DNA of 64,000 bases from Acidobacteriota bacterium (GTDB taxonomy: Bacteria; Acidobacteriota; Blastocatellia; UBA7656), in the NCBI GenBank assembly GCA_040754075.1, contig JBFMDH010000017.1, forward strand, positions 50,585 to 114,584. The letters run 5' to 3'. Of this stretch, positions 2,868 through 44,581 are shown one piece after another. Both the position numbers and the translations under genes were made by a program. Each line of letters opens with the position of its first letter. Within the stretch, counting starts at the first letter, position 1. The notes under the pieces were generated by a model. The model saw only the letters and a program-made list of their open reading frames with translations, had not been told where the DNA came from and searched no databases.

Positions 2868-5800
2868 TTAAAACACGATTCGCAGCCCCAGTTGAATCTG
2901 TCTTGCGGAAGTCACGGTCGAGCGAATGCGCCCGAAAGTTGCCAGCGGTTTTTCATTGTCTGCGGCTCCCGCAAAGGCAATCAAACTCGGTGCCCCGAAA
3001 TTCGTCCGATTGAACAGATTGAACGCTTCGACGCGCAATTGAATGTTGCCACTGTCGCCAAGCCATGACACCCGCGTGTTTTTTACGGCTGACAAATCGA
3101 AGGTTCGGAGGTTCGGTCCCGTGAACGTGTTGCGCCCTATATTGCCCAAAGTTCCTGCCGCTTGCAACACGAATGCTGCGGGATTGAAGTATTGATTGGG
3201 ATTGCCGGTCACTGCGGTTTGGTGTGTAAAACCGGGCGCAAGGCTTGGACGGTCAAAGCCGATGCCGGGCGCTTGCGAGGGCGACCATTGCGAACGCGAA
3301 CGATTGCGCGACACAAAAACGGTGAGCGGATTGCCGCTTCGCCTGTTGCTGATGCCGACCAGTTGCCAGCCATCTAAAAGTTTTCCGGTCAAACCTGCTT
3401 TGCCCTTAGCAAACGGCAAAGCCCAGATGAAATTGACTACCCAGTTATGTTTCGCATGAAAATCGGCGAGTCCTTTGTTGTACTGAAAACCGGGAAATTC
3501 CGGGAAAGCCGAAACCGAGCCGGTGGTTGAATCCGAGAAGAAGGTCGAAGCTTGCGTGGTGTCAAGCGTGCGCGAGAAGGTATAAGAAGATTGAAATTCG
3601 AGTCCCGCGCTCCAGCGTTTGCGCACTTCAAAAATCAAAGCGTTATACCACGAATTGCCATCGCTCTTTTTGAGTTCGATAGTTGAAAACGCCGTGTTCG
3701 GTCGCGCTTGTCCAACCGGAAAAAAGAGCGTACCGTCCGGCAGGCGTTGCGGCGTCGGAATATTAGCATCGGTGTTTCTCAGCAAATGAATGCCACGCGC
3801 CCCCGCATAACCAAGGGTCACCACCGTGTTGAACCAGAGTTCGCGTTGCAGATTCAAATTGTAGATGCTCGCATAGGGATTTTTTAAATTGTACTCGACC
3901 GGACGAATCGAATTGCCGATGCCGCGTTCAAACGGCGGATTGGGAAATGTCGGATTGGCAATGATGATGCGCGGCGTTGCCGGTGGATTGGTAACCGTGA
4001 CAATCAGGTTCTGTTGATTGTTGGTGTTGAAATAGATGCCATAGCCGCCGCGTAAACTCATCTTGCCATCGCCGAATAAATCCCAGGCGAATCCAAGTCG
4101 CGGCGAAATATTTTTCCTGGTCGGATTTTTATAAAGCTCGCCGACGGTGGGCGCGGGGTCGCTTAAATTGATGAGCGCGGAATCGCGTCCGTAAAGGTCA
4201 ACCGGCATAGTCGCGGCTTCGTATCGCAAACCGAGATTCAGGGTGAGGCGCGGGCTGATGCGAAAATCGTCCTGCGCAAAAAAACCAAAGAGCGTGAAGC
4301 GCCAGTAACGGTCGAGCGCGCCTTGCGGTGGAAGCCCTAAAAATCGCTGCGGGCGATTTTCCAGAAATGAACGCAAATCCGGGAAGGTATAAATGCCGAG
4401 CGAAAAAGTCGGATTGACCATGTTGTCTTGATAACGCTCGATGAGTTCGCCAAATTTCAAATTGTGTCGTCCGCGCGTGTAAGCAAAGTGGTGTTCAAAA
4501 CTGAAAACATTTTGTACGAGTGTGACATTCACGGATGATTGCGGCCCGAAACGCGGCATCCCGCCAATGTCTATGTCGCCGACGAGTCTGCCCGGAACAA
4601 AGGGTTGCAATGGCGTTGTCGTGTTTGCCTGTACATCTTGCCCGATGTGCGTGCGACTGAAGCCGCCGCGAAAGGTGTGAATCGTAAGCGGTGAAGTCAC
4701 CCAGTCATGTTGCAAGGTAGCGAATTGATTGCGCGACAGGAACGAACGCGGAAATTGCGGAAAGTCGGTCGGCAAAAACTGGTCTGCATCATCGAAGGTG
4801 TAACGAATGAACGAGCGATTGAAATCATTGAAAGCATGATCAACTCTGCTTTGCAAGAAATGCTGGTCAACCGTTTGATTGAAACCGAAATTGAAAGCCG
4901 CCAGCCCGCCGCCTAAATTCGCGCCATTGGCTCGCGGAATTTCGTTGAGGTAGGGCACAACCACCGGATTGATATTGACGGTGATAGTTTGAGCAGGGTT
5001 TGCGGGGTTAGGCAGAATGCCGCGTCGCGCATTGTCATCGGGAACGACGGACGAGATAGTTTTTCCGAGCCGTTCAATTAAAGCTTCATAGCCGAAAAAG
5101 AAGAAGGTTTTATCGCGTTTGATGGGACCACCGAAAATGCCGCCGAATTGATTACGTTTAAAGTCAGGTTTTCGTGTCGGGTCAAAAAAATTGCGCGCAT
5201 CGAAATTATCATTGCGCAGAAATTCAAAAAGCGTCCCGTGAAATTCATTCGTCCCGGCTTTGGAAACCGCATTGATTTGCCCGCCGAAATTGCGCCCGAA
5301 CTCGGCGCTGTAAGAATTCGACTCGACGCGAAATTCCTGAATGGTTTCGACTCCGAGTACGGTGTTGGCGGCGCTGCCGGCAGGACCATTCGTAAAATCA
5401 TTTTGCACGGTGCCATCGATCAAATAAACATTCGAGCGCAAATCCTGCCCGTTGACGCTTGTGCCAAGTCCGTGCGCCACAATCGAGCCGCCATCACGAT
5501 TGGGAAAAGCGATGACGCCGGGTTGCAACAAAGCAAGGTCAGTATAGTTTCTGCCATTCAAGGGCAATTCCCGGATAGCGCGTTCATTGACAAGGTAGCT
5601 GAGTTCCGGCGTTTGCGTATTGACCAAAGGCGTGTTGCTGGTGTCGTCGATAGTAACCTTCTCTTCAACCCCGGAGGGTTCCAACGCCACATTAACCACT
5701 GCCGTTTCACCCAGCGTTAAAACGATGTCTTTGCGCGACCAGGATTTGAATCCGCGCTGTTCGGCGCGAATCTCATAACGCCCGACGCGCATCTCCTGAA

Positions 5801-6029
5801 AGGTGAACCGACCCTCGTCGTCGCTTTGCGTGGCGCGCGTGAAATTGGTGTCAATACTGCGCGCCGTGATCTTTGCGCCTGCAACAACCGCGCCGGTTTG
5901 ATCCGCCACCACCCCTGTAATGGAACTGGTGGTTTGCGCAAAGCCATTCAGGGCGAAGAGATTGCCAACCAGAAAACCGATGATAAAAAAATGTGAAAAA
6001 AGGCGGGAACAAAATTTTGTGTACAACAT
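2868..6029 (-). CDS. TonB-dependent receptor with N-terminal carboxypeptidase-regulatory-like domain
   Basis: 1053 aa with a signal peptide (FALNGFAQT). It has a CarboxypepD_reg-like segment ([22 protein letters not shown]...[25 protein letters not shown]), a long beta-barrel-like body and an aromatic C-terminus (LRIVF). Confidence 0.85.
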
Positions 6030-6165
6030 GGCTATCGCTGACTTTCCTTCAGTAAGTTTTAAGGTTGGAGTCTAATGAGATTCCATTCTACCAACCGCTA
6101 CCACCCGTTGCAATTTGCCGCTGTGACGTGCAATAGTACGCAGGCAACCAGCCAACAGTTACGAA

Positions 6166-6423
6166 ATGCCTATGAAAAAAGCTTGGCTCACGCTTCTCGT
6201 TGTCGTGCTGTATGTGCTGCATCAGGACTTCTGGTTCTGGCGCGATGCCCGCCCATTGGCTTTCGGTTTTCTTCCCGTCGGCATTTTTTATCACGCCATT
6301 TATACGCTTGCGGTGTCAGCAGTGATGTGGGTGTTAATCCGCGAGGCTTGGCCTGCGCACCTCGAAGAAGAGGTTGAGCAGGAAATGTCTTTACATCAAC
6401 GCGAGGAGGAAGACGCGCGTTGA
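6166..6423 (+). CDS. DUF3311-like small membrane protein, the usual companion of SSS transporters
   Basis: 85 aa with two TM segments and an acidic tail. Its stop TGA (6421-6423) overlaps the TTG start of the downstream symporter (TTGA). Confidence 0.65.
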
Positions 6424-8051
6424 TTGCTGCAATATTTGTTTTCGCTTATCTTGCCGTCGTCCTCTACATCGGCATCTTCGCCTTTCGCAAATCGAAAGAC
6501 CGCGCCGAAGACTATTTCCTTGCCAATCGTTCGCTCGGTCAATATGTCTTCCTGCTGTCGCTTTTCGGCACTAACATGACGGCGTTTGCGATACTCGGTT
6601 CATCGGGTCATGCGTTCAACAATGGCATTGTGACTTATGGACTGATGGCGTCATCGTCGGCGCTCATCATTCCGCTTTCACTTTTTTTTATTGGCACACG
6701 CATATGGGCACTCGGCAAACGGCAAGGCTTCATTACCTCTGTGCAGATGTTTCGCGACCGCTGGGAATGTTCGCACATCGGCACGGTAATATTTGCCGTG
6801 CAGGCTGTATTTTTAGTGCCTTACATCATCATCGGGGTGATGGGCGGGGGCACGGCTCTAAGCGCGATTAGCGGCGGGCGCGTGCCCTTCTGGTTCGGCG
6901 GCGCATTGGTTGCGGCAGTGGTGATGTGCTACGTGTTTTTCGGCGGAATGCGCGGCACTGCATGGGTGAATACCTTTCAAACGACGCTCTTTTTATGCTT
7001 CGGAGCCATCGCCTTTATGGTGATTGGCGCAGGGATGGGCGGCTTTGGTGAATCCGTTGAAGCGATGCTCGCTTCGCCTGCAACCGCGCCGCTGATGACC
7101 CGCGAACGGGTCGCGCCCCTTTTCTTTTTGAGCTACACTTTCATTCCGCTCTCATCCATCAACTTTCCGCATATGACCATGTTTTGTCTGACCGCAAAGA
7201 AGATGAGTCAGTTCAAAAAGACCATTCTTTTTTATCCGATTTGCATGATTGTGTTGTGGGTTCCATGCGTGTTTTTAGGGGTGATGGCAAATCGTTTGAC
7301 CGATGCGCCGCAGATTCAACAGAAACTCGAAGCGCGCCGCCAGCTTGCAATCGAAGGCGCGCGAATGACCCCTGAAGAACGCAACCAGGTGCGCGCCAAA
7401 ACCAATGCCGATGATGTGTTGCTGGTGATGCTTGAACGCTTCGCGCCTTTGTGGCTTGCCGGACTTCTCGGCGCAGGCATTATGGCGGCGGTGATGGCGA
7501 GCGATTCACAAATTCTCGCGCTGTCGACCATGTTTACCGAAGACGTATTTGCGTTTTATGGCGGCAAGCGGCGATTCGGCGAACATGTGCAGATTCAAAC
7601 CGGGCGGGTGTTCATCATCCTCATTACCATTTTCGCTTACATCATCGCGCTACGCTCACCGCAGGCGATTTTTGATCTCGCGGTGCAGTATGCCTTTTCG
7701 GGTTATTCAGCGTTGATGCCGTTACTAATTGGCGCGCTGTTTTGGAAAGGCAGCACCAAATGGGGCGCGCTTGCGTCAACCTTGTGGGCGTTTTTTGCGG
7801 TCGCGGCAGTTGCCGTCTTTCAAGCCAGTATGCCGACGCCCGCGCCCGGCCCGCCTGTGGTTGTGTGGTCAGTGGGCGGCGTTGAAATTTTATCGCGCAC
7901 CGCTGGCGGCACCGCCGTTTTTGGACTCATGCCTGTGGTGCCGATGGTCATCATCTCTGCGCTGTTGATGTTTGTGGTTTCCAAACTCACAGCCAAACCG
8001 AGTGCAGCGACTCTTGCGCGTTACTTTTCACGACGCGAAGAAATGGTGTAG
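6420..8051 (+). CDS. sodium:solute symporter (SSS) family transporter
   Basis: 543 aa with about 13 TM segments. The N-terminus ([19 protein letters not shown]) is typical of the SSS family. TTG start overlaps the DUF3311 stop. Confidence 0.8.
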
Positions 8052-11555: not shown

Positions 11556-12428
11556 TTACACGTCGCACAGCGCGACGGCTTCGCGAAGTGAAGTGAGTGG
11601 GTCGCGTTTGGGGACGAATTCATGGGCGACGTAGCCTTTGAATCCTAAATCGGCGATGGCTTTGCAGACGGTCGCCCAGTTGAGTTCCTGGGTATTGTCC
11701 AGTTCGTTGCGTCCCGGCACACCGCCCGTATGAAAATGCGCGATGTAATCAATGTTCTGGCGAATCGTGCGGATGATGTCGCCTTCCATGATTTGCATAT
11801 GATAAATGTCATAGAGCAGTTTCACACGCGGCGAAGCGACCGCTTTAATCACTTCAACGCCGAATGGCGTATAGTCGCCCTGATAGCCTTTGTGGTCAAC
11901 TTTGCTGTTTAACAGTTCGACGCAAATCGTCACCCCTTCGTTTTCAGCAACTTTTTTGACGCGGTTCAATCCAATGATGCAGTTTTCTTTCGCCTGTTCA
12001 TCGCTTTGATTTTGACGATTGCCGAAAAAGGTGATGACGTTTGGCACTTTCATTTTGGCGGCGCGCGGAATCGTCGCTTCAAAATTTTTGACGATGGCAT
12101 CGTGATTGGCTTTGTCGTTCAAGGCTTTCGGAATCGTACCGCCACCGGCGTATCCCATCGAACAAATCAAGCCGTATTTGGCAATCGGTGCCCACTCTTT
12201 CTCTTCGAGTAAATCAATTGCCGTGAGTCCTATGTCGGCAACCGCGCGGGCAAAATCATCAAGCGGAATTTTGCCGTAACACCAACGCGAAACCGATTGT
12301 TTGAGTCTGCCGTTTTTCACGATGCGCTGCATCGCAAATGCCGACGAGGTGAAATCTTTTAGTATCATGGCTGAAAATGTTGTCGCGCCGATTCCTTTAA
12401 TTAAATTACGTCTGCTGATGATATTCAT
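11556..12428 (-). CDS. hydroxypyruvate-isomerase-like TIM-barrel protein (xylose isomerase-like fold) with Tat signal
   Basis: ORF trimmed to ATG 12428 (MNIISRRNLIKGIGATTFSA), which carries a twin-arginine-type signal. Motifs VELLNSKVDHKGYQGD and HFHTGGVPGRNELD. The upstream ORF extension is translation of the GTGATGA repeat. Confidence 0.75.
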   Translation of the reverse strand: MNIISRRNLIKGIGATTFSAMILKDFTSSAFAMQRIVKNGRLKQSVSRWCYGKIPLDDFARAVADIGLTAIDLLEEKEWAPIAKYGLICSMGYAGGGTIPKALNDKANHDAIVKNFEATIPRAAKMKVPNVITFFGNRQNQSDEQAKENCIIGLNRVKKVAENEGVTICVELLNSKVDHKGYQGDYTPFGVEVIKAVASPRVKLLYDIYHMQIMEGDIIRTIRQNIDYIAHFHTGGVPGRNELDNTQELNWATVCKAIADLGFKGYVAHEFVPKRDPLTSLREAVALCDV

Positions 12429-25302: not shown

Positions 25303-26187
25303 TTAAGGTTGATGAAAATAATTGCGCACAAAATCTTTAAGCGCCGCTTGCCAGGAACGCAGCGGTTTTAAGCCTAAGGATTCGGAAAGCAGACAACGCA
25401 TGGCGGAATTGTGAGGGCGCAGCGCAAGTTGATTTAAATCGGCGCGCGTGCAGGGTTCAATCGCAAAATCGCGCATTCCCGCCAGTTCAAATGCCAGCCG
25501 CGCAAACTCAAGCCAACTCATCGCGCCGGTGTTGGTGACGTGATAAAGCCCGTGGTGACGGAGCGCCATCAACTCTTCGATGCGGGCGGCGAGATCAGGC
25601 GCATACGTGGCAATCGAGGTTTGATCTTGAACGCCTTTTAATTTCGCTCCTGCCCTGGCGTAATCGAAAAGCTTGCTGCCGAAATTCTTTCCGCCGACTC
25701 CAAACACCCACGAGGTGCGAATGATCAACGATTCCGGCAACTCCTGACTTACCGCCTGTTCGCCTGCGAGTTTCGATTTGCCGTAAACACTCAAGGGATT
25801 GGGCGAGTCTTCCTGCGTGTAAAAGCCGGGTTTTGTACCGTCGAAAACATAATCGGTGCTGATGTGAACGAATTCGGCATGAACATCGCGACAAGCGCGC
25901 GCTAAATATCGTGGTCCCTTTTGATTAACCGCAAATGCCCATTCGATGTCGCGTTCACAGCGGTCAACATCGGTTGTTGCAGCGCAATTAATGACCACAT
26001 CAGGTTTTTCCTGTTCGATAATTCGCCGCACGTTCGTTTCATCGGTAATGTCGAGGTCGGCGTGGGTCAATGCAATGACGCGCCAATTTGACTTCGCCAG
26101 TTGCTCGGTCATACAACCTCCAAGCAATCCTCCCGCGCCGGTCACGATGGCGGTTTTCTTTTCATCGAAATTTGTTTTGCTTGTCAT
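25303..26187 (-). CDS. rfbD: dTDP-4-dehydrorhamnose reductase
   Basis: Start ATG 26187. TGAGGLLG Rossmann motif, STDYVFDG and YGKSKLAGE motifs. Confidence 0.85.
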   Translation of the reverse strand: MTSKTNFDEKKTAIVTGAGGLLGGCMTEQLAKSNWRVIALTHADLDITDETNVRRIIEQEKPDVVINCAATTDVDRCERDIEWAFAVNQKGPRYLARACRDVHAEFVHISTDYVFDGTKPGFYTQEDSPNPLSVYGKSKLAGEQAVSQELPESLIIRTSWVFGVGGKNFGSKLFDYARAGAKLKGVQDQTSIATYAPDLAARIEELMALRHHGLYHVTNTGAMSWLEFARLAFELAGMRDFAIEPCTRADLNQLALRPHNSAMRCLLSESLGLKPLRSWQAALKDFVRNYFHQP

Positions 26188-26315
26188 GAATTCTTCAACA
26201 GCCATTGACGCATTCGGTCAAAAATTTAAATAGAGAGTGGCAGGGTAAACAGGATGTTTTGAGGGATAGAAAATTATCCTGCATATTCTGTCCATCCCTG
26301 TTAATTTCCGCTCTT

Positions 26316-27320
26316 CTATCTGCCACCGTACATGCGTTCGTAATACTCGGCGTATTCGCCTGACTGCGCCCGCTTAACCCAAGCTTGGTTTTCCTGATAC
26401 CAGCGCACGGTTTTTTCCATACCGCTTTCAAATGATTCTTGTGGATGCCAATCGCATTCGGTTTCCAATTTAGCCGGGTCGGTCGCGTAACGGCGGTCGT
26501 GACCGGGGCGGTCTTTGACATAGGTAATCAAGGAATGCGGTTTACCGAGTAAATCCAGCAAGGCGCGAACGACTTCGAGGTTGGTTTTTTCGGCGCGTGA
26601 ACCGATGTTATAGATTTCGCCGGTTCGCCCTTTGTGTAAAACCTGGTCAATGGCGCTGCAATGGTCATCAACATAAAGCCAGTCGCGCACATTGAGACCA
26701 TCGCCGTACACCGGCAAGGATTTGTCTTCGAGGGCATTGGCAATCATCAATGGAATGAGTTTTTCGGGAAACTGATAAGGTCCATAGTTGTTTGAAGCGC
26801 GGGTAATCACGGTGTCCAATCCGAACGTGACCGACGCGGCGCGAACCAGATGTTCGGCAGCGGCTTTCGATGCGGCATACGGACTGTTGGGTTGTAGCGG
26901 TGAAGTTTCCACAAAAAATTCATCTTCGTTGCAAGACCCCATCACTTCGTCTGTGGAGATTTGCACGAAGCGGGAAAGGTGATGCGCGCGAGCCGCATCA
27001 AGCAAAACCTGCGTGCCTAAGACGTTGGTATTGATGAATTCGGCTGCGCCTTCGATGGAACGGTCAACATGAGATTCAGCGGCAAAATTGATGATCACAT
27101 CCGCTCCGCTTATTGCTGCATCGACGGCTGCACGGTCGCAAATATCGCCGCGCACAAATGTGTAGCGTGAAGCCCCGGCAACATCGTTTAAGTTTTCGAG
27201 GTTGCCCGCGTAAGTCAGTTTGTCAAAGTTGACGATTTTATAGTCAGGGTATTTGTTTAAAATATTGCGAATAAAATTGGAGCCGATAAATCCCGCGCCA
27301 CCGGTAATGAATAATTTCAT
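26316..27320 (-). CDS. rfbB: dTDP-glucose 4,6-dehydratase
   Basis: 334 aa. MKLFITGGAGFIGSNF, YAASKAAAEHL, and PGHDRRYA near the C-terminus. Confidence 0.9.
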   Translation of the reverse strand: MKLFITGGAGFIGSNFIRNILNKYPDYKIVNFDKLTYAGNLENLNDVAGASRYTFVRGDICDRAAVDAAISGADVIINFAAESHVDRSIEGAAEFINTNVLGTQVLLDAARAHHLSRFVQISTDEVMGSCNEDEFFVETSPLQPNSPYAASKAAAEHLVRAASVTFGLDTVITRASNNYGPYQFPEKLIPLMIANALEDKSLPVYGDGLNVRDWLYVDDHCSAIDQVLHKGRTGEIYNIGSRAEKTNLEVVRALLDLLGKPHSLITYVKDRPGHDRRYATDPAKLETECDWHPQESFESGMEKTVRWYQENQAWVKRAQSGEYAEYYERMYGGR

Positions 27321-27544
27321 AACTGTCCTTTCTTATGGAAAGGTCGAATTGTAGCCATCGCCATTTGCTTTTATCAACCGATGAACGCAAAGCATACTCG
27401 CATTGAAGGGGCTTGGTGCTTATGTTATAGTCCACGTCCTCACAAAGTTCATAACGTCAAAGCGGCTCTAATCAAGTAGCGACAATAATCATTTCCATTC
27501 ACTCACTTTTCGCCTGAAAAGGTAATAACAACCGAGGAGGCAAA

Positions 27545-28357
27545 ATGAAAAAATCTTTCGCATCAATTATTCTGATGGCTTTGACGGTTTTTTCAGTCGC
27601 GTCATTGATGACCGAACCCGCCAGAGCCGACATTGTGGTTTTTACCGCGCAGTTGCTTGCCAGTAACGAAGTGCCGCCGGTAGGTAATGCCGAACGGAAT
27701 GCTTTCGGCAGTGTTACGGTTACTTTGGATACCACCGCAAATACTGCGCGATTCGATGCCAGTGTGGAAGGATTGACCACGGCTGTCATCCTTGCGCACA
27801 TTCACGAAGCCGCCGCCGGAGTGAATGGTCCCATACGAGTTGATTCAGGATTGAGTCCCTCAGCCCCACTCCCTCCGGTCAATGGCAGCGTCAGTTTCAC
27901 ACGCGCCAATTTGCCTGTGCCAACCGATGTGAGAGATCGCATTCTGGCAAATCCTGCGGGCTTTTATTTCAACGTTCATTCAGCCTTGAATCCGGGCGGC
28001 GTCGTGCGCGGGCAACTGGTTCGTTCGCAATCAACCACCCCTGCGCTCAATGCGCCGACCTTATCCGAGTGGGGCGCTATTTTAATGACCTTGCTCTTCA
28101 TTGCCGCTTCAACCTTTTTTCTGGTCGGACGCAACAACGCTTTCCTGGCAAATGAGAGTAGCGCGATGGCGGTTGCGCCGGTGAAGGCTATCAACTGGCA
28201 ATTGTTCATCAAAGTCGCGCTCAATGTTGAAGCCCTCATCGCATTGCTGCTCATTGCGATGCGCGCCAACCTTGTTGATGTATTCGGCGCGTTGGCTTCA
28301 GGCATCGTGCTCTCGTACATTGTTCATTTGTTCATCGCCCGCGCCCGGCGGAATTAA
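27545..28357 (+). CDS. exported CHRD-domain protein with an IPTLxxWG-type exosortase sorting motif followed by an unusual ~70-aa membrane extension
   Basis: GAGGAGG RBS and a signal peptide. CHRD pattern (LLASNEVPPV...AVILAHIHEAAAGVNGPI). PTLSEWG plus a TM helix occupies residues 171-198 (nt 28055-28138). About 72 further residues follow, with more hydrophobic helices, ending ARARRN. Confidence 0.75.
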   Translation: MKKSFASIILMALTVFSVASLMTEPARADIVVFTAQLLASNEVPPVGNAERNAFGSVTVTLDTTANTARFDASVEGLTTAVILAHIHEAAAGVNGPIRVDSGLSPSAPLPPVNGSVSFTRANLPVPTDVRDRILANPAGFYFNVHSALNPGGVVRGQLVRSQSTTPALNAPTLSEWGAILMTLLFIAASTFFLVGRNNAFLANESSAMAVAPVKAINWQLFIKVALNVEALIALLLIAMRANLVDVFGALASGIVLSYIVHLFIARARRN

Positions 28358-28398
28358 TCGAAGTTTTCACAAAGGAGAATCAGTAGCCCACCGCTAAG

Positions 28399-28989
28399 GT
28401 GAAGCGTTTCAGTCCTGCGTTACCTTATGGTCAGGCTACTGATTTTAACGTCATGCCAGTTGTTGAATCAGCCAAACATTTTTTTGCAGCCAATCAAAAA
28501 GCCTTGCGCTTTCTGTCACTGTTTGCAGCCATCTTTGCCATCAGCTATTTTGTTTTTGGCATCGCCGAAGGGGTACGTAGTTCGCTCATAAAACCCTACA
28601 CGGCGCTGCTTGCAAAAGCCGTAGCGGCGATGGTCAATCTGTTTGGCGCAGGCGCAACCACCGATGGCACGACGATTCAAGCGCAAAATTTTTCGCTTAA
28701 CATTGCGATGGGCTGCGATGGCATCGAAGCGGCTTGTCTGTTTTTAGCCGGGGTTCTCGCCTTTCCGACATCGTGGCAAGCGCGAATGATTGGGCTGGCA
28801 ATCGGCATTCCGTTGATTCAAGTCATCAATGTGTTGCGCCTGATTGCGCTCTATTATGCGGGCATGCATTTCCCATCCGTCGTTGAAGAGATTCACATCT
28901 ATGTCGCTCAAACCGTGGTTATCATCCTCTCAACCGCCATTCTCATCTTCTGGCTCGAACGCATTGCCAGTCGCTACCGGACAGCATAA
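28399..28989 (+). CDS. xrtH: small exosortase-family protein, most consistent with exosortase H (IPTLxxWG-CTERM-specific)
   Basis: 196 aa, polytopic. It has the conserved exosortase Cys motif (AMGCDGIEAA), an Arg motif (INVLRLIALYY) and a downstream His (EEIHIYVAQ). It is adjacent to a PTLSEWG-bearing substrate. Start is GTG 28399 or ATG 28453. Confidence 0.7.
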   Translation: MKRFSPALPYGQATDFNVMPVVESAKHFFAANQKALRFLSLFAAIFAISYFVFGIAEGVRSSLIKPYTALLAKAVAAMVNLFGAGATTDGTTIQAQNFSLNIAMGCDGIEAACLFLAGVLAFPTSWQARMIGLAIGIPLIQVINVLRLIALYYAGMHFPSVVEEIHIYVAQTVVIILSTAILIFWLERIASRYRTA

Positions 28990-29638
28990 ATGGCTGTGGC
29001 GTTTGTTGGCGGCACTCGGATTATATGTGCTGTTACTGCCTCTGTGGTGGTATAGCCTGGGCGCGACTGCAAACCTCAGCGGCACGCTGGCAAATGTCGC
29101 TTATCGGATATTCGATTCACGAACCACCATTCAACCGCAAGGCAGAGAAATCAAGATGACGGTAATGGCGACGCCTGAGAGCGGCTATGGCGGAGCCTCG
29201 CATTCATCAATGATGCGAGTCGATACCGTCAATTACGGCTTGCCGATGCTCATTGCACTCATACTGGTCACGAGCGCGGATTCCTGGCGCGTGAAATTGC
29301 CGGCGCTGGGGCTAGGCGTTTTCATCATGTTTTTACTCACCACCCTGGCAGTGATGTTATCAGCTAAAATAACCGGGCTAGAGTTGGAAGATAAAATCGC
29401 GCAGGCGAATTTCGTGCAAAGCCGTAATCCATCGGGCTTTTTCAATCTGGCGTTTCATGGCTATTCATTTTCGCAACCGGTGGTTGCGGTACTCATCTGG
29501 TTGGGACTTGTGATGCTCGGCTTTTTCAAAGAGAAAATCAAAGCTCAGGTTGAGGCGCATAAAATCACCGTGGCTCGCAATGCGCCTTGTCCCTGTGGCA
29601 GCGGCAGAAAATATAAACGCTGTTGTGGTCGGAGTTAA
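28964..29638 (+). CDS. polytopic membrane protein with a C-terminal SEC-C metal-binding motif; exosortase-associated by position
   Basis: The frame of ORF 28844..29638 overlaps xrtH. I prefer TTG 28964 as the start (PVATGQHKWLWRLLAALGLYVLLLPLWWY), but this is uncertain. The protein ends with CPCGSGRKYKRCCGRS, a SecA-type SEC-C motif. Confidence 0.55.
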   Translation: MPVATGQHKWLWRLLAALGLYVLLLPLWWYSLGATANLSGTLANVAYRIFDSRTTIQPQGREIKMTVMATPESGYGGASHSSMMRVDTVNYGLPMLIALILVTSADSWRVKLPALGLGVFIMFLLTTLAVMLSAKITGLELEDKIAQANFVQSRNPSGFFNLAFHGYSFSQPVVAVLIWLGLVMLGFFKEKIKAQVEAHKITVARNAPCPCGSGRKYKRCCGRS

Positions 29639-29665
29639 TTTATTCGCCCCGATTCACGCTCACCC

Positions 29666-30727
29666 TTAACGTCGGTTCAACTCTTCCGGCGAAGGCATCG
29701 GCATCATCTGCACAGACGAAGGCGAAGCAGGCAGTTGCCCTTTCGGTTTTTCTTTTGCCGTCGCTTTATTTTCGGCGCTGCCGGTTAAATCGCCGAATAC
29801 CTCTTTGAAAGCGCCAACCGATGAAAGCACCGAAGAGGTTTCCACCGGCATAAAGACTACTTTCGAGTTTTGACTTGAAGCCATCTGCGTCAGCGATTCA
29901 ATATAGCGTTGCATCAGCAGGTAGTAAGCCGGATTGCCCTGCGAAATCGATTCGGCGATTTGTTGAATAGCCTGCGCTTCGGCTTCCGCAGAACGCAAGC
30001 GGGCTTGCGCAGCACCTTCGGCGCGCAAAATCGCAGAGGTTTTTTCACCTTCGGCGCGGGTGATAGCCGATTGTTTATCACCTTCGGCGCGAGCAATCGC
30101 CGCCTGTTTTTCACCATCGGCTTGTAAAATCAATGCGCGGCGTGTGCGTTCGGCGGTCATCTGTTTTTCCATCGTCACCCGCACATCTTCAGGCGGATGA
30201 ATGTTGCGAATTTCGACGCGCGTAACCTTCACGCCCCATTTGTCTGTCGCTTCATCAAGCACGGCGCGCAGTTTACTGTTAATCAAATCACGCGAAGTGA
30301 AGGTATGGTCGAGGTCGAGTTCACCGATGATGGCGCGCATCGAGGTGATGGTGAGTTGCATGATTGAACCCGTGAGGTCGGCGACTTCATACACCGCTTT
30401 AATCGGGTCGGTGATTTGATAATAGAGCACCGAATCAATTGCCACCGTGACATTGTCGCGGGTGATGACCGGTTGCGGCGGAAAGTCGAGCAATTGTTCG
30501 CGTAAATCGAGGGTTGCAAAACCGGGCTTTTGTCCTGACCAATACACGGCACGGGGTTTGTCAATAAACGGCAGAATGATATTGAGTCCGCTGGTTGCCA
30601 GTTTATGAAATCGCCCGAGGCGTTCGATAATTAAAACTGAGGCTTGCCCGACCACACGAAAAGATTTCAACAGGGTGATAAAAACGGCGAATGCGATGGC
30701 TCCGAGAACAATTAATCCGGCTTCCAT
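29666..30727 (-). CDS. SPFH/band-7 (stomatin-like) protein
   Basis: 353 aa with an N-terminal TM segment and an SPFH core (RVVGQASVLIIERLGRFHK...). It has a coiled-coil AEGEK-type repeat region. Confidence 0.85.
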   Translation of the reverse strand: MEAGLIVLGAIAFAVFITLLKSFRVVGQASVLIIERLGRFHKLATSGLNIILPFIDKPRAVYWSGQKPGFATLDLREQLLDFPPQPVITRDNVTVAIDSVLYYQITDPIKAVYEVADLTGSIMQLTITSMRAIIGELDLDHTFTSRDLINSKLRAVLDEATDKWGVKVTRVEIRNIHPPEDVRVTMEKQMTAERTRRALILQADGEKQAAIARAEGDKQSAITRAEGEKTSAILRAEGAAQARLRSAEAEAQAIQQIAESISQGNPAYYLLMQRYIESLTQMASSQNSKVVFMPVETSSVLSSVGAFKEVFGDLTGSAENKATAKEKPKGQLPASPSSVQMMPMPSPEELNRR

Positions 30728-30731
30728 ATTT

Positions 30732-31223
30732 TCAATCTCCTTTTAAACTTTTTGGTGCGCGCCAGGACGGCACGGCATCATAGTGCCTGACGTAAACCGA
30801 GGCGCCTTCGACACGTTCAATAATCACCTTTTCGCCATTATTCAGCGGTTCTTCATCAAGCGAAAAAGCCCGCCACGTCGAACCCGAAACGCGCACCGCG
30901 CCTTCTCGCGTCGACCCGGCGGAATCTTCGACAACCACCCCGATCAAACCCGGCAACGCTTCAACGCCGGTTTTGAGTTCACGACCCGGCGAACTTTTAA
31001 GAATGAAACGCTCGAATATGGTGCGTGAAGCAATGGTTAATAAAATCGATACGATTAAGAAAACAACAATCTGTAGAGGAAGCCCGGCGATACCGGCGAG
31101 CGCAAGCAGTCCGGCAACCAACGCGCCAACGCCAAACCAGAGTAACACAAACCCCGATGTGAAAATTTCGGCGACGGCGAATAATGCCGCCAGGATGAAC
31201 CAGATGTACCAGAGCTTATCCAT
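30732..31223 (-). CDS. NfeD-family membrane protein (partner of the SPFH protein)
   Basis: 163 aa with three N-terminal TM segments plus a C-terminal OB-like domain (VRVSGSTWRAFS...VIIERVEGASVYV). There is a 4-nt gap to the SPFH gene. Confidence 0.8.
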   Translation of the reverse strand: MDKLWYIWFILAALFAVAEIFTSGFVLLWFGVGALVAGLLALAGIAGLPLQIVVFLIVSILLTIASRTIFERFILKSSPGRELKTGVEALPGLIGVVVEDSAGSTREGAVRVSGSTWRAFSLDEEPLNNGEKVIIERVEGASVYVRHYDAVPSWRAPKSLKGD

Positions 31224-44507: not shown

Positions 44508-44581
44508 GGCGGCGTAGCTCAGGTGGTTAGAGCGTGGGATTCATAACCCCAAGGTCAGTGGTTCAAGTCCACTCGCCGCTA
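44508..44581 (+). tRNA. tRNA with CAT anticodon (elongator Met, or Ile2 if lysidine-modified); no encoded CCA
   Basis: Cloverleaf read by eye: acceptor ggcggcg/cgccgct, D-arm tagctcaggtggttagagc, anticodon loop ttCATaa, T-arm ggttcaagtccac. It lacks the C1-A72 mismatch of initiator tRNA. Confidence 0.9.

Follow-up and report, generated by a model that had tools for sequence, protein, structure and literature searches.

An exosortase H cassette of Blastocatellia whose cargo protein carries an IPTL-type sorting motif ahead of a conserved three-helix membrane module

Why does a protein encoded beside an exosortase carry its sorting motif in mid-protein, with three membrane helices after it? The question is raised by a stretch of 64,000 nt (the window) from Acidobacteriota bacterium (Blastocatellia; UBA7656; assembly GCA_040754075.1, contig JBFMDH010000017.1, positions 50,585-114,584, forward strand). 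Positions 27545-29638 of the window hold three consecutive open reading frames (ORFs) on the + strand, each found at the coordinates given in a preliminary description of this DNA: a CHRD-domain protein (ORF1), an exosortase of the exosortase H family (XrtH, ORF2) and a probable XrtH-associated membrane protein (XrtH_assoc, ORF3). That description read PTLSEWG and the transmembrane helix behind it as an internal IPTLxxWG-type signal, and left it between an expanded signal, a cleavage that leaves a small membrane peptide and the loss of a stop codon. Here we find that the part of ORF1 beyond the motif is a real and conserved extension, and we propose, with a probability of about 0.6, that cleavage of ORF1 by XrtH at the motif sets the CHRD ectodomain free or passes it on, while three helices stay behind in the membrane, a reading drawn by analogy with related systems.

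The N-terminus of ORF1 (MKKSFASIILMALTVFSVASLMTEPARA, followed by D) reads by eye as a typical signal peptide, in agreement with a hydrophobic window at residues 3-26 and an AlphaFold2 helix at residues 3-23. The CHRD domain behind it passes the gathering score of PF07452 (77.1 bits against a cut-off of 24.1) and matches the model over its whole length, 1-117 of 117. AlphaFold2 predicts this domain with a local distance difference test score (pLDDT) above 90 as a beta-sandwich like that of Cu,Zn superoxide dismutase (SOD), and Foldseek ranks Cu,Zn superoxide dismutases first among the PDB folds (3km1_A with E = 3.8e-5; target TM-score 0.5-0.7). H85, H87, E88 and H145 are the same in all 26 orthologues aligned, which suggests a metal site whose correspondence with the SOD ligands is putative.

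The motif together with its preceding residue reads A-P-T-L-S-E-W-G (170-177). Six of these positions (P, T, L, S, W and G) do not vary among the 26 orthologues, and four (P, T, W and G) are fixed across 28 divergent proteins that share the same long C-terminal region (long forms). AlphaFold2 places hydrophobic helices at residues 173-201, 218-238 and 243-269 of ORF1, and the Kyte-Doolittle profile agrees. The 72 residues beyond the G-R-N-N patch thus amount to two extra hydrophobic helices (TM2 and TM3) in addition to the first transmembrane helix (TM1), and the internal signal of the preliminary description holds, with the motif at 171-177 of 270 and three helices after it. A hidden Markov model (HMM) of the motif and TM1, run against all six-frame ORFs of the window, matches ORF1 alone (E = 8e-17; next best E = 1.9). 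As this HMM was built from 28 long-form proteins including ORF1's own module, the score is partly circular and the search serves to test for other matches in the window; by this measure the six-frame ORFs of the 64 kb hold no second IPTL signal.

The extension is conserved as part of ORF1. A search of a 5.8-billion-protein collection returned homologues of 55-84% identity in 120 clusters among the matches listed, and 119 of these cover 96-100% of ORF1 with lengths of 261-315 aa. The sole exception, at 84% coverage, sits on a 1-kb contig. The names given by the source are all Blastocatellia or Acidobacteriota. Across a set of 42 XrtH-linked loci (462 kb in total), each locus holds one IPTL-bearing ORF in which the distance from motif to stop is 100-118 residues, and short forms amount to just two extra genes with 34-residue tails, both in one locus (L039). 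Motif-to-stop lengths are therefore bimodal, either 34-39 aa as in the classical signal or 100-118 aa, with none in between. In the 26-sequence alignment E229, D245, G248, A249, S252 and G253 of the extension are invariant. By region, the frequency of the majority residue is highest in the motif (0.95), followed by the CHRD domain and TM1 (0.79 each), TM3 (0.74), TM2 (0.71) and the two linkers (~0.5), so that the added helices match the CHRD domain in conservation.

These observations make it virtually negligible in probability that the extension is an artefact, be it through loss of a stop codon, through an error of sequencing or assembly, or through recent fusion to a gene that once encoded a small membrane protein on its own. 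In no orthologue does a stop follow the basic patch, the same frame and length recur in at least 120 clusters and in 42 independent loci, the tail lengths fall into two groups without intermediates, and at none of the 42 loci do the two parts of ORF1 occur as separate genes. Nothing was found in favour of such an artefact, the sole analogy being HVO_0405 of Haloferax volcanii, which is described as a strain-specific gene fusion (PMC7157517). Full-length homologues, uniform tails of 100-118 residues and invariant residues within the extension together refute both the lost stop and a separate ORF, and the post-motif extension of ORF1 is real.

The neighbouring enzyme belongs to exosortase H by its family models, with catalytic activity predicted. 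The product of 28399-28989 passes TIGR04177 (XrtH; 110.9 bits against a cut-off of 86, E = 5.5e-32, model 2-153 of 158), the score on which the preliminary description had let its exosortase assignment stand or fall, and also passes TIGR04178, the exosortase/archaeosortase signature (46.5 bits against 23). The Cys and Arg signature motifs noted at the outset are both conserved, as is the His. The catalytic-type Cys lies in MGCDG (codon 28714-28716); C88, D89, N126 and R129 are invariant in XrtH alignment A3, and Cys and Arg are invariant in alignment A5, in all five XrtH sequences (28-39% identical to its first, the XrtH-like protein of locus L041). The His is invariant in alignment A6, which holds three divergent XrtHs, and is visibly conserved in A3 and A5 where the sequence reaches that far. 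Most of the XrtH homologues listed are 178 aa long, and several of them are named exosortase H by NCBI or JGI. XrtH therefore most likely starts at ATG 28453 rather than at GTG 28399, so that the family first assigned to this gene stands and its length of 196 aa gives way to 178 aa. A tblastn search with XrtH against plasmids found only XrtM.

ORF3 scores 27.2 bits with NF041730, the XrtH-associated family (cut-off 35), over positions 5-180 of 184 of the model, while its orthologue in L001 exceeds the cut-off with 37.1 bits and carries PF28117 (XrtH_assoc). The position of this gene directly after XrtH is conserved. The polytopic membrane protein of the preliminary description is thus probably the XrtH-associated membrane protein, but its 146-nt overlap with ORF2, an effect of taking the longest ORF, is probably unreal because the alignment to the model starts at TTG 29003, 14 nt past the XrtH stop. 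The protein ends in a SEC-C motif that is kept in the aligned Blastocatellia XrtH_assoc proteins and absent from the copies of three other lineages (L039, L040, L041); this tail might link the sorting complex to SecB, to SecA and the Sec machinery or to the ribosome, a connection that is putative. XrtH_assoc also shows a weak local likeness to XrtH downstream of the catalytic Cys (hhalign probability 58%, 37 columns), and the copies of L041 (7953-8603) and L040 (814-1476) match TIGR04177 weakly (E = 1.6e-4 and 1.5e-3). XrtH_assoc may be a degenerate relative of exosortases, or the similarity may be one of chance between membrane helices.

The order CHRD protein, exosortase, XrtH_assoc with SEC-C recurs around the homologues. 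A scan with the XrtH alignment of one genome per species gave 32 loci, all of Blastocatellia type by title or by similarity, and in all 32, as well as in L001-L004, a single IPTL-bearing ORF lies directly upstream of XrtH. The three-gene module of the preliminary description is a conserved cassette. A SEC-C ORF follows downstream in most of these loci; it was missed in L009, L014, L016, L018 and L022, in the last two of which the contig ends soon after XrtH. Seven of the 32 loci carry another cargo, a protein of ~625 aa. Its ice-binding-like domain scores 89 bits with NF045625, short of the cut-off of that model, and by reading the protein also has three Ig-like repeats. It ends in the same three-helix module as ORF1 and is followed by its own XrtH and XrtH_assoc/SEC-C genes. 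Both types of cassette occur together in three genomes (L016 with L035, L029 with L033, and L031 with L032), and in a neighbour-joining tree the XrtHs that adjoin ice-binding-like cargo form a separate clade, which indicates that each paralogous enzyme travels with its own substrate. Haft's criterion for a dedicated system is one enzyme and one target in consecutive genes (bioRxiv 10.1101/2023.06.07.544157); this arrangement is found at these loci, and judged by gene order the cassette is a dedicated sorting system in that sense. No short-form IPTL substrate was seen in the window or in any Blastocatellia flank surveyed near XrtH. Two of the metagenome-assembled genomes with Blastocatellia-type CHRD or ice-binding-like cassettes are titled 'uncultured Clostridia bacterium' (L031 and L032, CAZJQQ01...; L034, CAZPQE01...). 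Their XrtHs are 61-63% identical to that of the window, and the 'Clostridia' label is probably wrong.

The module is not confined to CHRD proteins or to Blastocatellia. With residues 166-270 of ORF1 alone as the query, phmmer found 43 matches in an exhaustive search of 1.84 billion representative proteins. Many of these bear the module as a C-terminal unit behind unrelated N-terminal parts, in proteins that reach 714 aa, and the distance from motif to end is 101-116 residues in each. Across lineages these N-terminal parts include CHRD, ice-binding-like, HExxH and other domains. The pattern of the module is [IVA]-P-T-[LV]-S-[EQ]-W-G, TM1, a basic patch, a variable loop, TM2 and a TM3 of the form D-[IV]-x-G-x-L-x-S-x-x-[IV]-x-A-[YF]-x-x-H-L. 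The conserved residues of TM3 are spaced every three to four positions, which would put them on one face of the helix and points to a surface for helix packing. AlphaFold2 models the module alone, from a diverse alignment, with a mean pLDDT of 83.9 and a predicted TM-score (pTM) of 0.68, and with the TM2-TM3 hairpin above 90; a fold search with this model against the PDB found nothing below E = 2.3. Homology of the module to XrtH or to XrtH_assoc was considered and dismissed (hhalign probability <1%).

The company of the long forms is that of XrtH in most cases. When seven of them were looked up without reference to XrtH, five adjoined an XrtH-type gene (Table 1), and at L042, the sole locus from a metagenome scan with three divergent XrtHs, a long form lies directly upstream of XrtH. 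Long-form loci beyond Blastocatellia range from 39 to 66% in GC content. Mobile-element genes flank the two long forms that lack a nearby exosortase: L048 has a DDE transposase (1402-2373) and L049 has integrase fragments (3786-3950 and 11742-12167). A rearrangement may have separated them from their cassette. L039 (3142-8554) is the only locus seen with both sizes of signal: its long form adjoins XrtH, and 1.1-3.8 kb downstream of XrtH lie two IPTL-CTERM genes of the classical short type, which encode NIDO and Choice_anch_L domains and tails of 34 residues, so that long and short signals coexist in one organism. The long-form gene of this locus is called as two overlapping genes of 167 and 171 aa, a split that may reflect a frameshift or a miscalled start. 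A contrast set, obtained by a profile search of the 5.8-billion set with module alignment A2 that was limited by a word filter, consists mostly of classical short IPTL-CTERM proteins. Two classical short forms looked up for comparison (P0183 and P0171) have no exosortase within about 5-10 kb. Database entries of 117-185 aa were examined as candidate long forms without cargo and set aside, as they start mid-domain, have no signal peptide and look like fragments. We propose that the module is a portable long form of the IPTL-CTERM sorting domain and a docking element for the XrtH and XrtH_assoc pair.

From these features a course of events can be sketched. ORF1 would be exported through Sec by its signal peptide, and its SOD-like CHRD domain would then stand outside the inner membrane, held there by the module of ~100 residues. 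The motif would lie at the outer face of TM1, followed by a short cytoplasmic loop, a tightly packed TM2-TM3 hairpin and a basic tail. Hydrophobicity, the positive-inside rule and the AlphaFold2 models point to a topology in which TM1 runs from out to in, TM2 from in to out and TM3 from out to in, and, as that rule predicts, both basic patches would then be on the cytoplasmic side. XrtH, with its signature Cys, Arg and His intact, would recognise the motif and TM1 and cut in mid-protein; the CHRD domain would be released or passed to an acceptor in the envelope, and the leaving group, a remnant of ~95 residues with three helices, would stay in the membrane. Cleavage is proposed here by analogy with exosortases and archaeosortases in general, which are considered to cut their signals at the motif, with HVO_0405, which is cut by archaeosortase A (ArtA), and with the IPTL-CTERM S-layer protein of Methylomirabilis. 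An expanded signal and a cleavage that leaves a small membrane peptide, the two earlier explanations still standing, are both compatible with this scheme and do not exclude each other.

Several observations weigh against cleavage of ORF1 by XrtH. Both curated IPTL-CTERM models score ORF1 below threshold (TIGR04174, 15.9 against 20.5; PF18203, 15.8 against 20.8), their alignments spanning just the first 18-19 of 27-28 profile positions. The basic cluster after TM1 is weak, consisting of one nearly invariant Arg (G-R196-N-N), while long forms from other lineages have RRR as their basic patch. With NF033207, the NCBIfam family 'midcut-by-XrtH protein', ORF1 reaches 8.5 bits against a cut-off of 45 (E = 2, model 34-81 of 175). 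The rule of one enzyme and one substrate holds for the loci surveyed, ~0.44 Mb of Blastocatellia sequence near XrtH, and classical short substrates may lie elsewhere in these genomes. The long forms of L049 and, within the sequence at hand, of L048 show that adjacency to an exosortase is not obligatory. The literature searched yielded neither biochemical data on any XrtH nor a demonstrated cut in any XrtH substrate.

Some of these points agree equally with an ORF1 that is never cut. An intact three-pass ORF1, with its CHRD domain exposed in the periplasm, could be docked permanently on XrtH and XrtH_assoc and serve them as a pseudo-substrate or an accessory subunit, with XrtH acting on classical substrates encoded elsewhere. 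The scores below the IPTL-CTERM cut-offs and the weak basic patch would be expected of such an anchor or adaptor; L039 has long and short forms with the long one in the conserved place beside XrtH, and the small and polar residues conserved along TM3 suggest a stable helix-helix interface. We nevertheless consider it unlikely, because no part of the protein is conserved more strongly than the motif, whose P, T, W and G are invariant across divergent lineages, as expected of a site that an enzyme recognises and cleaves. Unrelated N-terminal parts also fit a variable cargo better than a fixed subunit, and the classical substrates that XrtH would then serve were seen neither in the window nor in the Blastocatellia flanks surveyed.

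Cleavage at the motif could also occur for the sake of the other fragment, the three-helix remnant being matured by XrtH into a permanent component of the XrtH and XrtH_assoc pair and the N-terminal domain being secondary. In keeping with this, the module is constant where the cargo varies, the gene lies beside XrtH in most lineages sampled, one of which also has classical short substrates, and the TM2-TM3 hairpin is confidently predicted and carries conserved D, G, S and H. The existence of a long form without a nearby XrtH (L049) speaks against it, as do the failure to find a long form without cargo among the short database entries examined, which look like fragments, the missing homology of the module to XrtH or XrtH_assoc and the absence of interaction evidence, and we regard this possibility as quite improbable. 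A combination of the two outcomes for XrtH systems in general is a long shot: a two-part sorting domain, made of the IPTL motif and the conserved three-helix module on a protein encoded beside XrtH, whose cleavage would not only release the cargo but also supply the XrtH and XrtH_assoc complex with a lasting subunit or specificity factor in the form of the three-helix remnant. If so, a sortase-like reaction would have a functional membrane protein for its leaving group; none of the sortase, exosortase or archaeosortase systems found in this search is described in such terms. Release or transfer of the CHRD ectodomain by XrtH is the reading that we prefer.

Exosortases are widespread and, to our knowledge, their biochemistry is almost unknown. 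A cassette of one enzyme, one partner and one substrate offers a tractable test case both for exosortase cleavage and for the fate of the leaving group. Because the presumed cut site lies ~100 residues from the end, the two fragments would be easily told apart, a property that also made HVO_0405 the standard archaeosortase A reporter. As the module lies outside Pfam and NCBIfam models, the proteins that bear it are annotated as 'CHRD domain-containing' or 'hypothetical' and their link to XrtH is lost in annotation. The two groups of signal length, the usual place of the long form beside XrtH and the conserved intramembrane residues of TM3 raise the question of a role for the fragment that remains after cleavage, and the predicted cargo domains, SOD-like CHRD and ice-binding-like, point to envelope functions in soil Acidobacteriota.

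The features of the cassette and the loci compared with it are collected in Table 1. The cassette is flanked on both sides by genes on the - strand, dTDP-sugar genes upstream (25303-27320) and an SPFH/band-7-like and NfeD-like pair downstream (29666-31223). By eye the upstream ORFs resemble RmlD-type and RfbB-type enzymes and the downstream ones band-7 and NfeD proteins; an RmlD/epimerase gene lies upstream of the cassette in L001 and L002 too. A promoter and terminator scan of 27200-29900 found no more sites than shuffled controls. The remainder of the window holds a single tRNA-Met (44508-44581) and no further Rfam match.

Table 1. Features of the cassette in the window (positions of the window) and related loci (locus, with positions where given)
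Feature	Location	Strand	Basis
ORF1, cargo protein, 270 aa: signal peptide, CHRD ectodomain, PTLSEWG, three membrane helices	27545..28357	+	
Predicted Sec signal peptide, residues 1-28, ending ARA before D	27545..27628	+	by-eye reading, hydrophobicity, AlphaFold2 helix
CHRD domain, residues 33-158	27641..28018	+	Pfam PF07452
PTLSEWG, residues 171-177, IPTLxxWG-type XrtH recognition motif, presumed cleavage region	28055..28075	+	
TM1, residues 178-194, then weak basic patch G-R196-N-N	28076..28126	+	hydrophobicity, AlphaFold2
TM2, residues 218-239; E229 invariant within the Blastocatellia set	28196..28261	+	
TM3, residues 246-265; conserved D245 just before, basic tail RARRN after	28280..28339	+	alignments, AlphaFold2
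Exosortase H (XrtH), 178 aa; longest ORF from GTG 28399	28453..28989	+	TIGR04177; homologue lengths and names; invariant residues
Probable XrtH-associated membrane protein; likely start TTG 29003, longest ORF from 28844	29003..29638	+	NF041730 (below cut-off; above it in L001 orthologue), PF28117 in orthologues, position
SEC-C zinc-binding motif CPCGSGRKYKRCC, C-terminus of XrtH_assoc	29576..29632	+	PF02810, 37.6 bits against 20.4
Sister cassettes with ice-binding-like cargo	L024, L025, L027, L028, L031, L033, L035; ~3900-7100 in each		
Long form P0136 (HExxH protein), directly upstream of XrtH homologue	L005, L006		
Long form P0163, upstream of XrtH	L039		XrtH, 87.4 bits
Long form P0160, two genes from XrtH	L040		XrtH, 91.3 bits
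Long form P0143, upstream of XrtH-like gene	L041		78.4 bits, best match XrtH
Long form P0158, upstream of XrtH-like gene	L047		
Long form P0155, no exosortase within -9.7 / +3.5 kb	L049		
Long form P0137, no exosortase within +10 kb; contig begins 95 bp upstream	L048		

A comparison with known systems helps to place this cassette. Among its closest relatives is the exosortase H and IPTL-CTERM system (TIGR04177, TIGR04174, PF18203, NF041730/PF28117), with which it shares the enzyme family, scored above cut-off, the motif I/V/A-P-T-L-S-E/Q-W-G at the start of a helix, a signal peptide on the substrate and a probable XrtH_assoc gene after XrtH. The S-layer protein of Methylomirabilis lanthanidiphila is an IPTL-CTERM protein (PMC8671808). 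In contrast to the classical IPTL-CTERM signal, which ends 34-39 residues past the start of the motif, 100 residues with two further conserved helices follow here, the gene is fixed beside XrtH and the curated models stay below threshold. Extreme C-terminal location is attribute 1 of sorting signals in Haft's account (bioRxiv 10.1101/2023.06.07.544157), and ORF1, with 72 residues beyond its basic patch, does not have it. By its sequence features ORF1 would thus work like an IPTL-CTERM protein but fails two of the defining features of that class, the C-terminal location and the HMM threshold.

A mid-protein XrtH-type signal in a gene associated with XrtH is also the layout that the name of NF033207 implies, and the existence of this family indicates that curators had recognised such a signal before; no publication on XrtH, IPTLxxWG or 'midcut' was found in the literature searched. 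ORF1 shares this layout, and 28 of 45 long forms match the model at E <= 0.01. However, ORF1 itself was rejected as a member on its score, the best long form reaches 40.2 bits (<45), and the matches cover positions ~10-85 of 175, which correspond to the IPTL region with a short stretch before it and include nothing past TM1. The module would therefore be a different or much diverged family, as far as a comparison with the model rather than with member sequences can tell.

A case in which a cut has been demonstrated is HVO_0405, which ArtA cuts in vivo at its central PGF signal into N- and C-terminal parts, according to PMC7157517 (citing Abdul Halim et al. 2017, J Bacteriol 199:e00802-16). The same paper states that the cut is lost in artA, pssA and pssD mutants, and that HVO_0405 is a strain-specific fusion of two once independent genes with a soluble-type C-terminal domain (PMC7157517). 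Both proteins carry a signal of the exosortase/archaeosortase superfamily in mid-protein. Unlike in HVO_0405, the part after the signal is small, conserved, purely of membrane type and present in many lineages, and the enzyme is XrtH rather than ArtA. Dedicated systems of the JDVT-CTERM or myxosortase type (bioRxiv 10.1101/2023.06.07.544157) resemble the cassette in their one-to-one pairing, their consecutive co-oriented genes and the conserved residues inside a membrane helix, but they use another class of enzyme and keep their signals at the extreme C-terminus. New with respect to all of these are a discrete, portable three-helix long form of the IPTL signal, outside current models and usually beside XrtH in diverse organisms, the coexistence of long with short forms, and the duplicated enzyme-substrate cassettes of Blastocatellia.

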